Below, piece after piece: positions 24,880-57,710 of a DNA stretch of 64,000 nt (position 1 is the first letter of the stretch; every line of letters begins with the position of its first letter). The notes beneath the pieces are model-generated. The model was not told the DNA's origin and searched no databases. It saw only the letters and a program-made list of their open reading frames with translations. This stretch comes from Escherichia coli (GTDB taxonomy: Bacteria > Pseudomonadota > Gammaproteobacteria > Enterobacterales > Enterobacteriaceae): NCBI RefSeq assembly GCF_003790525.1, contig NZ_CP033635.1; one strand, given 5' to 3'. Position numbers and translations under genes: made by a program.

Positions 24880-25527
24880 TTATTCGTTAGTGGCAGGATT
24901 ACGAAGCGTGGGGCACAGGAGATACATCTCCAGTAAGATGGCGACGTAATCGCGGGCTTCTTTTTTAAGATCAAAAGATTGCGGGGCAAAGAGCCAGTTT
25001 TCCATCAGGCCGGAAATATAGCCGCGCATAATAATTGCTGCGCGACGCGTCATTAAATCCGCAGGCAACATTTTCGCTTCAATACAATGTTTTAACGTTT
25101 GTTCTATACGGTCATAACTTTCCAGACAGAGATTACGTTGTGCCTGTTGCACAACAGCCATTTCTCCGACAAATTCGCATTTGTGGAATATAATCTCCAT
25201 CAATAATCGACGCCGTTCTTCTGTCACCGTGGATTCAAGAACATGAATTAATATCTCTCTTAATACTGAGAGTGGATCGCCAGGGAATTTTGCCTGATAC
25301 TCAAGCTCTAGTTCACCAATATTGGATTCTGACAGTTCCCAGATCTCACTGAACAAATCCGACTTGTCTTTAAAATGCCAGTAGATTGCACCGCGCGTAA
25401 CGCCAGCTGCTTTTGCAATCTCGCCCAGCGAGGTGGATGATACCCCCTGCTGTGAGAAAAGACGTAGAGCCACATCGAGGATGTGTTGGCGCGTTTCTTG
25501 CGCTTCTTGTTTGGTTTTTCGTGCCAT
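24880..25527 (-). CDS. acrR: TetR-family repressor AcrR (215 aa)
   Basis: ORF track 215 aa; N-terminal TetR HTH; divergent from acrA. Confidence 0.95.
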
Positions 25528-37034: not shown

Positions 37035-38321
37035 TTACGCGTTATAGGCATTCTCGCCGTGGCTGTTGACGTCCAGCCCTTCTCGCTCCTGTTCTTCCGG
37101 TACACGCAGACCAACCGTCAGATCCGCCAGTTTGTAGCCAATAAACGCCACCACACCGGACCAGACGATCGTAATGGCGATGCTTTCCAGCTGTACCAGC
37201 AACTGATGGCCCATCGTCACACCTTCAGCGAAGCCCACGCCGCCCAGCGAGCTGGCGGCAAAAATCCCGGTCATGATACAGCCGACAATGCCACAAACGC
37301 CGTGCACACCGAAAACATCGCAGGGATCATCCACCCGCAGCAAACGTTTGAGCATGGTAACGCCCCACAAGCCCGCCAGACCAGCTACCACGCCGATAAT
37401 CAACGCGCCGCCAACCCCAATGTAGCCACAGGCTGGCGTCACGCCGACCAGACCGGCAATCGCGCCAGAACACGCTCCCAGCAGTGAAGGCTTACCGCGC
37501 AGCGCCCATTCACCGAAGATCCAGCCAAGAATTGCTGCCGCCGTTGCGACCACAGTATTCACAAATGCCAGTGCTGCGATTTCATTCGCCGTGCCCGCTG
37601 ACCCGGCGTTAAAGCCAAACCAACCGATATAGAGAATGGCAGTCCCGGTGAAGACCATCGGCAGGTTGTGCGGTTTAAACGCCTCTTTGCCGAAGCCCAC
37701 GCGTTTGCCTATCAGATACGCGCCCACCAGACCGGCGATTGCGGCGTTAATGTGCACCACCGTGCCACCCGCGAAATCCAGTGCACCGTGAGAAGCCAGC
37801 AAACCGCCGCCCCAGACCATATGCGCAATCGGAATGTAGGAGAGCGTCAGCCATACCACCACGAAAATCAACACAGCTGAGAAGCGGATTCGTTCCGCCA
37901 GTGCTCCAACTATCAAGCCTACGGTAATGCAGGCAAACGATCCCTGAAACGCTACGTGGATATACTGATAAATGCTGCCCATCACCGCCGTCAGTTCGAT
38001 GTTTTTCAGCATCAACCAGTTAATGTTGCCGAAGAAGTTGTTTCCCTCACCAAACGCCAGCGAGTAACCGTAAACCACCCAGAGAATACAGACCAGTGCA
38101 AACGTCACCGTCACCTGCGTCAGCATCGACAGCACGTTTTTGCCGCGAATCAACCCACCGTAAAACAGGGCAATCCCCGGAATAGTCATAAACAGCACCA
38201 GCGCAGTACAAATCATCATAAACGCATTGTCGGCTTTATCGGCCACCGCAGGTGCAGCCATTACCAGTCCCGGCAGCATCGCCAGTGAAGCAAGCCCAGT
38301 TTTTATCGTCGCTATCTTCAT
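37035..38321 (-). CDS. amtB: Ammonium transporter AmtB (428 aa)
   Basis: ORF track 428 aa; signal peptide plus 11-TM Amt/MEP family sequence. Confidence 0.97.
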   Translation of the reverse strand: MKIATIKTGLASLAMLPGLVMAAPAVADKADNAFMMICTALVLFMTIPGIALFYGGLIRGKNVLSMLTQVTVTFALVCILWVVYGYSLAFGEGNNFFGNINWLMLKNIELTAVMGSIYQYIHVAFQGSFACITVGLIVGALAERIRFSAVLIFVVVWLTLSYIPIAHMVWGGGLLASHGALDFAGGTVVHINAAIAGLVGAYLIGKRVGFGKEAFKPHNLPMVFTGTAILYIGWFGFNAGSAGTANEIAALAFVNTVVATAAAILGWIFGEWALRGKPSLLGACSGAIAGLVGVTPACGYIGVGGALIIGVVAGLAGLWGVTMLKRLLRVDDPCDVFGVHGVCGIVGCIMTGIFAASSLGGVGFAEGVTMGHQLLVQLESIAITIVWSGVVAFIGYKLADLTVGLRVPEEQEREGLDVNSHGENAYNA

Positions 38322-38350
38322 TTTTCGTTCCTGTTGCTGTGTGCCAGAGA

Positions 38351-38689
38351 TTACAGCGCCGCTTCGTCGGCTTCGCCGGTACGAATACGAATGACGCGTT
38401 GCAATTCAGCGACGAAGATTTTGCCGTCGCCAATTTTTCCGGTGTAAGCCGCCTTACTGACGATATCAATCACTTCATCGAGTTGGTCATCAGCAATCGC
38501 CACATCAATTTTTACTTTTGGCAGGAAGTTGACGCTGTATTCCGCCCCCCGGTACAGCTCGGCATGCCCTTTCTGACGCCCGAAACCTTTCACTTCGGTG
38601 ACGGTCAGGCCCTGAATACCAATGGAAGATAACGCTTCACGAACGTCTTCCAGCTTGAATGGTTTGATTATCACGGTCACCAGCTTCAT
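38351..38689 (-). CDS. glnK: Nitrogen regulatory protein PII-2 GlnK (112 aa)
   Basis: Track ORF 158 aa; start taken as MKLVTVIIKPFKLEDVREAL (ATG 38687-38689, GGAGG SD); T-loop RGAEY. Confidence 0.95.
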   Translation of the reverse strand: MKLVTVIIKPFKLEDVREALSSIGIQGLTVTEVKGFGRQKGHAELYRGAEYSVNFLPKVKIDVAIADDQLDEVIDIVSKAAYTGKIGDGKIFVAELQRVIRIRTGEADEAAL

Positions 38690-38740
38690 AGATCCCCTCC
38701 GGTCAGAATTCGGTAATGGTTCTGCTACACGAAGAAGGTA

Positions 38741-38757
38741 TTGCAAGCGGTGTGCCA
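38741..38757 (-). promoter_or_regulatory. sigma54 (-24/-12) promoter of glnK-amtB
   Basis: Transcribed strand reads TGGCAC-ACCGC-TTGCA, a perfect sigma54 consensus about 50 nt upstream of the glnK ATG. Confidence 0.8.
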
Positions 38758-38804
38758 GAAATGAAAAACGAGAAAGAGAGCAGGAAGTTAAGAAGATTGA
38801 AAAT

Positions 38805-38860
38805 GAAAACGCACTATGACAGTGCACAGTGCGTTACATTATTGCACCAACGATGAAATA
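38805..38860 (-). promoter_or_regulatory. Putative NtrC enhancer sites upstream of the glnK sigma54 promoter
   Basis: Palindromic GCACTATGACAGTGC (38811-38825) and TTGCACCAACG half-site-like sequence 55-100 bp upstream of the -24/-12 element. Confidence 0.45.
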
Positions 38861-38869
38861 TTGCGCTAT

Positions 38870-42416
<3,547 letters not shown>

Positions 42417-54733: not shown

Positions 54734-54801
54734 AACAATCTTTTGTTGTTACGCTAACACCGAAAGAGGCTTTTCGCACGGTTCCATGCAAAATTCATGA
54801 C

Positions 54802-54833
54802 AAAAAAAAGCCCACCACCTGGCGGTGACGGGC
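54802..54833 (-). terminator. Intrinsic terminator of tig
   Basis: Imperfect GC-rich hairpin GCCCGTCACC...GGTGGTGGGC followed on the transcribed strand by T8, 35 nt after the tig stop. Confidence 0.65.
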
Positions 54834-57131: not shown

Positions 57132-57710
57132 ATGTTCAAAAAAATCCTCTTCCCGTTAGTTGCTCTGTTTATGCTTGCAGGATGCGCAAAACCGCCAACA
57201 ACTATTGAAGTTTCACCGACGATAACACTGCCACAGCAGGATCCAAGCCTGATGGGCGTCACCGTAAGCATTAATGGTGCCGATCAGCGTACCGATCAGG
57301 CGCTGGCAAAAGTCACCCGCGATAATCAAATCGTTACCCTGACCGCCTCCCGCGATCTGCGTTTCCTGCTGCAAGAAGTGCTGGAAAAACAGATGACCGC
57401 GCGTGGTTACATGGTTGGTCCGAATGGCCCGGTTAATCTGCAAATCATCGTTAGCCAACTGTATGCTGACGTGTCCCAGGGCAACGTGCGCTATAACATC
57501 GCCACCAAAGCGGATATCGCTATCATCGCTACCGCGCAGAATGGCAACAAAATGACCAAAAACTATCGTGCCAGCTACAACGTTGAAGGTGCGTTCCAGG
57601 CCTCCAACAAAAATATCGCCGATGCGGTTAACAGTGTGCTGACCGATACCATCGCTGATATGTCTCAGGACACCAGCATCCACGAATTCATCAAGCAGAA
57701 CGCGCGTTAA
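57132..57710 (+). CDS. yajG: Lipoprotein YajG (192 aa)
   Basis: Track ORF starts upstream; start taken as MFKKILFPLVALFMLAGC (lipobox) at ATG 57132. Confidence 0.88.
   Translation: MFKKILFPLVALFMLAGCAKPPTTIEVSPTITLPQQDPSLMGVTVSINGADQRTDQALAKVTRDNQIVTLTASRDLRFLLQEVLEKQMTARGYMVGPNGPVNLQIIVSQLYADVSQGNVRYNIATKADIAIIATAQNGNKMTKNYRASYNVEGAFQASNKNIADAVNSVLTDTIADMSQDTSIHEFIKQNAR

Follow-up and report, generated by a model that had tools for sequence, protein, structure and literature searches.

The 64,000-nucleotide stretch of Escherichia coli DNA analysed here (the window) contains, between mdlB and glnK, what is almost certainly glnKp, the sigma54-dependent, NtrC-activated promoter of the glnK-amtB operon. 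The promoter is not new. It is textbook material, and glnK-amtB serves as a standard read-out of the nitrogen-stress response governed by NtrC. Beyond the known promoter, we can offer two minor additions: the distance between enhancer and promoter varies among enterobacteria in steps of whole helical turns, and the enhancer may overlap a transcription terminator of the preceding operon.

The DNA of the window matches E. coli at 100%, and mdlB, glnK and amtB follow one another in that order on its minus strand. A 701-bp stretch over the region agrees with E. coli SMS-3-5 at 100% and occurs once in each of 5423 out of 5426 complete E. coli genomes, the annotation there being mdlB, glnK (P-II family nitrogen regulator) and amtB. 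The locus is the same as that of glnKp in E. coli K-12 (the glnK-amtB promoter; b0450), although the strain background of the window is SMS-3-5-like and not that of K-12. Over 241 aligned bases, from the end of mdlB into glnK, K-12 MG1655 differs from the window at two positions, both of them intergenic and both outside the motifs; the core promoter, the NtrC 17-mer, the Shine-Dalgarno (SD) sequence and the start codon are identical. At 38841, two bases 3' of the upstream TGGTGCA half-site, the window has T for the A of K-12. The neighbourhood of glnK is stable on a wider scale too. The gene upstream is mdlB in every Enterobacterales locus that holds enough upstream sequence, and amtB lies downstream of glnK in most loci, among them every one of the 14 mdlB-linked genome loci from Enterobacterales. 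The spacer between mdlB and glnK is 180 bp long in the window, and the features in and around it are the following, in the direction of transcription.

38870..38872, minus strand: stop codon TGA of mdlB, 35 nt upstream of the hairpin
38843..38849, minus strand: conserved upstream half-site TGGTGCA, whose 17-mer is centred 33 bp upstream of NtrC site 1 (about -120)
38808..38835, minus strand: hairpin AACGCACTGTG-CACTGT-CATAGTGCGTT, then TTCATTTTCA; it overlaps NtrC site 1 and is a candidate intrinsic-terminator stem of mdlB
38810..38826, minus strand: NtrC site 1, TGCACTGTCATAGTGCG, centred about -87, identified by conservation and quantised spacing
38797..38809, minus strand: T-run TTTTCATTTTCAA after the hairpin, the U-tract if this is a terminator and possibly also a bend
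38758..38768, minus strand: conserved T-rich block TTTTTCATTTC, directly 5' of the -24 element
38742..38757, minus strand: sigma54 core promoter glnKp, TGGCAC (GG at -25/-24), five bases, TTGCA (GC at -13/-12), in full TGGCACACCGCTTGCA
38731..38737, minus strand: CT-rich CUUCUUC ending at the putative start of transcription; published anti-SD insulator region, "centred at -4", the published segment corresponding to 38738..38732
38727..38731, minus strand: putative start of transcription (C38731 or G38730) and the conserved GTGT after it
38694..38700, minus strand: Shine-Dalgarno sequence GGAGGGG of glnK, the purines ahead of the ATG being conserved across 15 Enterobacterales
38351..38689, minus strand: glnK coding sequence, 112 aa plus stop, 339 nt, from the RefSeq annotation of the identical sequence and the Pfam P-II match
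37035..38321, minus strand: amtB, second gene of the operon, from the ORF list and RefSeq annotation

The initial annotation, made from the sequence, had described a perfect sigma54 promoter, TGGCAC-N5-TTGCA, on the transcribed strand. The motif is indeed there, letter for letter, at 38757..38742 on the minus strand, with its GG and GC doublets one helical turn apart as in TGGCAC-N5-TTGCW. It is the sole exact match on both strands of the 64 kb window, where 0.09 would be expected, and at least one exact match appeared in 9 of 100 shuffles. When two mismatches are allowed the pattern becomes uninformative (23 matches in the window versus 28.9 expected). The word "perfect" holds for this short consensus but not for a fuller model of the site: its published PSSM score is 10.5, in the middle of a listed range of about 6.8 to 12.4 (PMC4591121). 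Both halves of the motif, TGGCA and TTGC, are invariant across 15 Enterobacterales. The motif starts 68 nt before the glnK ATG in the window and between -64 and -71 in 66 of 71 distinct enterobacterial sequences. The T-rich block TTTTTCATTTC that adjoins it is conserved as well: three of its T positions reach 1.9 bits and one A is invariant (62 sequences).

From the geometry of sigma54 promoters we infer that transcription starts at 38731, give or take one nucleotide. The start was placed 19 bp from the motif centre, following a published convention (PMC4591121), and this leaves 42 nt to the ATG. Near this point a G and a T, at columns 27-28 of the alignment, carry 1.7 bits (62 sequences). A primary mapping of the glnKp start was not found in the accessible literature, and the EcoCyc status of the promoter has been given as "predicted" and not "confirmed" (PMC4591121). 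A tandem sigma70 promoter, of the kind that glnAp1 represents, was also considered and was rejected, as a scan of 38300..39300 for sigma70-like promoters found none.

Comparison with the annotated glnKp, which had been proposed as a check, shows agreement in both motif and position. Bonocora et al. report a sigma54 ChIP-seq peak (OS03, FAT 18) whose motif is CTGGCACACCGCTTGCA. The start that they predict lies 42 nt ahead of glnK, and their distance from motif centre to ATG, 61, is that of the window (PMC4591121). In the gSELEX data of Shimada et al. the mdlB/glnK spacer has a peak with RpoN holoenzyme, with NtrC and with the two combined, and the sigma54 motif that they list is the one of Bonocora et al. 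(PMC8743547). Zhao et al. include glnK among known sigma54-dependent genes, place its promoter at -68..-51 from the ATG and report an 18.8-fold drop for glnK upon rpoN deletion (PMC2831329). Both the published K-12 motif and the -68..-51 position match the window exactly. As to the activator, the first NtrC ChIP-seq peak of Brown et al. (peak 1, 39.7-fold) is at glnK-amtB (PMC4066584). Lack of induction by nitrogen limitation had been named as grounds for abandoning the promoter assignment; what was observed is induction, since glnK mRNA goes up on nitrogen starvation, is hard to detect when glnG is deleted and returns upon complementation (PMC4066584). Schumacher et al. relied on glnKp to report purely on NtrC activity, with 400-fold NtrC-specific activation (PMC3870243). 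Thus occupancy by sigma54 and NtrC and dependence on rpoN and glnG are published for the identical K-12 sequence, and the sequence elements, their conservation and their phasing come from the present analysis.

Upstream of the core promoter, a palindrome and a half-site at 55 to 100 bp had been proposed as an NtrC-activated enhancer. Counted from the T of TGGCAC, the elements are found 54 to 91 bp further upstream. The palindrome, GCACTATGACAGTGC at 38811..38825 on the plus strand, exists but is imperfect, with arms of 5 bp (GCACT/AGTGC) around five bases. The TGCACC half-site occurs at 38843..38848 on the plus strand, that is, as GGTGCA on the transcribed strand. A pattern scan, suggested at the same time, does recover the NtrC-type 17-mer, yet the pattern by itself is at the level of chance. 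The 17-mer TGCACTGTCATAGTGCG has three mismatches to TGCACC-N5-GGTGCA (9 of 12 specified positions match), and the window holds 35 such 17-mers of that quality where 35.6 are expected. Because of this, the weight of the 17-mer lies in its position and its conservation and not in the pattern.

That conservation is high. GCAC...T.GTGCG of site 1 is invariant in 15 Enterobacterales, and its TGCAC and GTGCG reach 2.0 bits (62 sequences) and are invariant in sets of 43 to 62 sequences. The upstream TGGTGCA carries 1.5-2.0 bits, conservation collapses directly 5' of it, and the gap from it to site 1 is fixed at 16 nt in all Enterobacteriaceae sequences. The left half of its 17-mer is not conserved. 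Judged by these features, the 17-mer of the half-site is probably a weak second NtrC site. Pairs of NtrC-type 17-mers with a spacing of 33 bp recur upstream of glnK in Pseudomonas. There is another weak 17-mer, TGCAATAATGTAACGCA, 20 bp upstream of site 1. The enhancer probably consists of one full site and a weak half-site, with this alternative 17-mer as a further candidate. When sequences are anchored on the site 1 17-mer, a conserved block emerges that begins with TGGTGCA (38849) and stops where the T-run does (about 38802), and conservation collapses on both sides of it.

The comparison drew on 79 glnK loci from species-representative genomes and on 65 metagenome loci that share the SD-ATG sequence. 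In the alignment of 15 Enterobacterales, invariance in the intergenic region is limited to GCAC..T.GTGCG, TGGCA, TTGC and two positions of the SD, together with the start codon; the remaining intergenic positions diverge and contain indels. We defined a composite as a sigma54 motif with at most two mismatches and intact GG and GC, combined with an NtrC-type 17-mer 50-170 bp upstream. This composite is present in 38 of 80 glnK loci and is absent from 254 kb of control sequence taken from the same loci. Both elements are found in 71 of 72 distinct enterobacterial upstream regions.

The distance between the two elements takes only certain values, namely 69, 78/79, 89-91, 100/101, 112/113 and 122-124 bp. 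E. coli belongs to the shortest class and the commonest class is 90 bp. The best period is about 10.8-11 bp (Rayleigh R = 0.955 for the six class means), with a Monte-Carlo p of 0.002 that is approximate because the spacing classes are not phylogenetically independent. These steps of a helical turn link the 17-mer functionally to the promoter. Such quantisation is as expected if a nearby enhancer contacts a closed sigma54 complex by looping that depends on the face of the helix. Looping of this short-range, face-of-helix kind is otherwise known from engineered constructs; shifts by single helical turns over about 70 natural variants are evolutionary evidence for it.

Another known system close to this arrangement is glnAp2 of E. 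coli, which has the sigma factor, the activator and the looping mechanism in common with glnKp. Its NtrC sites are centred at -108 and -140, and in both promoters the paired positions are about 32-33 bp (three turns) apart. In the 90-bp class of glnK loci, site 1 would centre about -108, like a glnAp2 site, and in E. coli the glnK enhancer is two helical turns closer to the promoter (about -87 and -120) than that of glnAp2. Other differences are that the second site of glnKp is a half-site only and that glnKp has neither an overlapping sigma70 promoter, such as glnAp1, nor governor sites. The glnK enhancer is reportedly weaker than that of glnA, so that glnK fires later than glnA, at higher NtrC~P (Atkinson et al. 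2002).

In all likelihood the promoter works as follows. At the -24/-12 element (38757..38742), sigma54-RNA polymerase forms a closed complex and is unable to initiate by itself. When nitrogen becomes limiting, phosphorylated NtrC occupies the enhancer, consisting of the dyad at 38826..38810 and presumably the GGTGCA half-site 33 bp further upstream. NtrC oligomers would then reach the polymerase by looping out the short intervening DNA, provided that they sit on the right face of the helix, and hydrolysis of ATP by NtrC would open the promoter. Transcription would begin at about 38731, and the 112-aa GlnK is translated from the ATG at 38689.

Two further suggestions do not compete with this scheme but would add to it. 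The first is that the block 38849..38797 has a dual use, serving as the NtrC enhancer of glnK at the level of DNA and as an intrinsic terminator of mdlAB at the level of RNA; we would put its chances at close to even, leaning slightly against. In this geometry the right half of NtrC site 1 supplies the 3' arm of the terminator stem, and the T-run acts as U-tract. If correct, the same block would end mdlAB transcription and activate glnK.

Several observations speak in favour of such a terminator. A terminator scan flags an 11-pair hairpin with a T-run 35 nt past the mdlB stop. The hairpin is the main element of the predicted RNA fold (z = -2.36; 6 of 200 shuffles are as good), and its predicted dG of -14.4 kcal/mol compares with an ortholog median of -15.1. 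At least six T in the eight nucleotides after GTGCG are found in all 43 blocks, the first four T of the run carrying 1.9-2.0 bits. The upstream arm AACGCAYC lies outside the NtrC 17-mer and is still conserved, at 1.6-2.0 bits, and mdlB, the gene to be terminated, is upstream in all Enterobacterales loci. Changes in the stem are compatible with pairing (C-G 36 / U-A 6; C-G 30 / U-G 12; A-U 41 / G-U 2), and over 43 distinct sequences 88% of the cells pair, versus 28-61% when the partners are slid. The variable base in the 3' arm shows covariation with the upstream arm but none with its partner in the NtrC dyad; inside the dyad there is no covariation. The window hairpin also has what canonical intrinsic terminators have, a G+C-rich stem and a T-rich run past a co-directional stop codon.

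On the other side, the hairpin differs from canonical terminators in that it overlaps a transcription factor site which is itself a dyad. Since the NtrC site is a dyad, a short palindrome of 6 bp could come from protein binding alone. Only one stem pair is changed in a compensatory way (the 36 C-G / 6 U-A pair), the other variable positions showing wobble changes only, and this two-sided change is confined to the Escherichia/Citrobacter group and may reflect a single event in one clade. In Yersinia and Rahnella the NtrC site is present, but no terminator-like site was found anywhere in the spacer. Alternatively, the T-run may bend the DNA and so aid a short loop, and in E. coli the U-tract is interrupted, TTTTCATTTT. 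The stronger notion that a terminator is always needed at this place was discarded, because the genera that lack the T-run differ among themselves: Photorhabdus has a separate terminator, and Yersinia and Rahnella have none. External sources gave no support. The Term-seq supplements of PMC7815308 and PMC12207403 list no entry for an mdlB or glnK RNA 3' end, a literature search on mdlB, glnK and terminator returned nothing relevant, and Rfam gave no family, only a chance snoRNA match of 18.8 bits against a threshold of 50 bits.

The second suggestion concerns transcripts that read through from mdlB into glnK. The pyrimidine-rich promoter region could act at the RNA level as an anti-Shine-Dalgarno insulator: CUUCUUC in the mdlB read-through RNA would pair with GGAGGGG and block translation of glnK, and transcripts from glnKp would be free of this effect as they do not contain CUUCUUC. 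We consider such insulation tentatively, at somewhat less than an even chance. Its basis is the work of Levy et al., in which a 50-bp glnKp fragment silences read-through translation via CT-rich segments, chiefly the one centred at -4, and glnKp is the founding example of CT-rich anti-SD insulators (bioRxiv 10.1101/086108). The published silencing is independent of rpoN, depends on orientation and is relieved by mutating the CT-rich segment (bioRxiv 10.1101/086108).

The experiments of Levy et al. were done with a synthetic RBS and context, not with the native glnK leader (bioRxiv 10.1101/086108), and what we can add here are folding predictions on the native leader, which point to a compositional effect. 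In the minimum free energy structure of the native read-through RNA, CUUCUUCG (38737..38730) is paired with CGGAGGGG, and in the predicted fold of the sigma54 transcript the SD is largely open. The predicted probability that the SD is unpaired is 0.50 for the sigma54 transcript of the window and 0.00 for its read-through RNA. Among orthologs the probabilities are 0.43 and 0.14, respectively, with the read-through value lower in 58 of 62. Replacing the upstream 60 nt with 60-mers of mdlB coding sequence gives 0.34, the native value being lower in 50 of 53 (pyrimidine fraction 0.67 versus 0.47).

Arrangement appears to contribute little to this masking. When the native upstream 60 nt are shuffled (mononucleotide), the SD is masked to the same degree, 0.13 versus 0.14, and a conserved anti-SD helix that depends on the arrangement of the bases is thus not supported. 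As shuffled sequences mask equally well, SD masking in these predictions is a matter of conserved pyrimidine-rich composition rather than of a specific helix. The read-through fold as a whole is not unusually stable either (z = 0.63). It should also be noted that efficient termination at the upstream hairpin would leave little read-through to insulate against.

Taken together, these suggestions would give a picture for the Enterobacteriaceae in which the NtrC enhancer of glnK is merged with the mdlAB terminator in one block of 48 bp, the anti-SD effect serves as a backstop and the enhancer has moved only by whole helical turns. We consider this picture somewhat less likely than not. Such an overlap of terminator and enhancer, in combination with the anti-SD effect of Levy et al., would account for the protection of a tightly silenced sigma54 gene from an operon that ends only 180 bp away.

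An alternative of a different sort concerns the protein. The open reading frame list contains a 158-aa ORF (38827..38351), and one might take it for a real GlnK with an N-terminal extension, as the reading frame is indeed open from the GTG at 38827. The initial annotation had regarded this ORF as an over-extension of glnK, with the true start at an internal ATG preceded by a GGAGG SD, and this is right: the ATG is at 38689 with GGAGGGG at 38700..38694, 5 nt upstream of it, and the GTG has no SD. Positions 1-102 of the P-II model (Pfam PF00543) align to residues 47-152 of the ORF, so that the first model position falls on residue 47, and the RefSeq annotation gives 112 aa. The extension cannot be aligned among Enterobacterales, where its lengths differ by non-multiples of three. 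In addition, the GTG lies about 96 bp upstream of the putative transcription start and one base before the NtrC 17-mer. A genuine longer protein is therefore rejected, on the P-II alignment, the RefSeq annotation and the non-conserved extension, and its probability is negligible.

Equally negligible is the reading that the sigma54 and NtrC motifs are chance matches and that glnK expression stems from a different promoter or from mdlB read-through: the NtrC-like 17-mer by itself does occur at chance frequency, and an exact sigma54 match does arise somewhere in 64 kb in some shuffles, but this reading is refuted by the comparative and published data, since the match stands at -68 before the glnK ATG as in the published promoter, the region scanned around it gave no sigma70-like alternative, the composite occurs zero times in the control sequence, the elements are invariant between genera whose flanks diverge, and the identical sequence has direct ChIP-seq, gSELEX and genetic data behind it.

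Upstream of glnK, the NtrC site and the sigma54 core are separated only by 69, 79, 90, 101, 112 or 123 bp in the collected loci L004-L020 and L083-L147. The steps between these classes are about one helical turn, and E. coli and E. albertii fall in the shortest class. Within the spacer between mdlB and glnK, the window differs from K-12 at only two positions, each a T for A on the minus strand. One (38841) falls 3' of the TGGTGCA half-site, at a distance of two bases, and the other (38796) lies beyond the T-run listed below. One match to the SD-ATG search pattern, L122, is off-target, having no mdlB, amtB or sigma54 motif.

Further features of this region are:

38758..38768, minus strand: T-rich block TTTTTCATTTC, directly 5' of TGGCAC and beyond the canonical -24/-12 elements
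38727..38730, minus strand: conserved GTGT at the inferred transcription start
38808..38835, minus strand: terminator-like hairpin, overlapping NtrC site 1
38797..38809, minus strand: T-run of that terminator-like structure

The T-rich block is strongly conserved, with three T positions at 1.9 bits and one A invariant; it may serve as an UP-like element or a bend. The true initiating base may be the purine G38730 instead of C38731. Pyrimidines make up 77% of the transcribed strand in the stretch of 60-70 nt that precedes the start (38731..38800, minus strand), and this bias is kept in orthologs (0.67 versus 0.47 in mdlB coding sequence). The pyrimidine-rich stretch fits the published CT-rich insulator of the glnK promoter, its anti-SD region (bioRxiv 10.1101/086108).

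The hairpin lies 35 nt after the mdlB stop. Its upstream arm is kept across Enterobacteriaceae, and all changes in it are compatible with pairing. In the mdlB-glnK spacers of Yersinia and Rahnella (L013 and L014, 1100-1510), which are much longer, we found no terminator-like hairpin. Photorhabdus has a separate one directly after its own NtrC site (L017, 1351-1375). L096 and L106, which represent one lineage, carry the NtrC site CGCACCAAAGCGGTGCG and a GC-rich stretch in place of the T-run.

In the glnK loci of Pseudomonas (L021-L046), pairs of NtrC-type 17-mers, exactly 33 bp apart, lie roughly 290-350 nt ahead of the ATG (e. g. -349/-316 in L043 and -320/-287 in L022), upstream of a TGGCA..TGCT motif. 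Since this motif is about 200 nt before glnK, the leader is longer than in the enteric loci.

Three more motifs from published sigma54 ChIP-seq (PMC4591121) are found verbatim in the window:

54787..54803, minus strand: OS02, upstream of clpP
25486..25502, plus strand: IA05, within acrR, antisense
57267..57283, minus strand: IA04, in yajG
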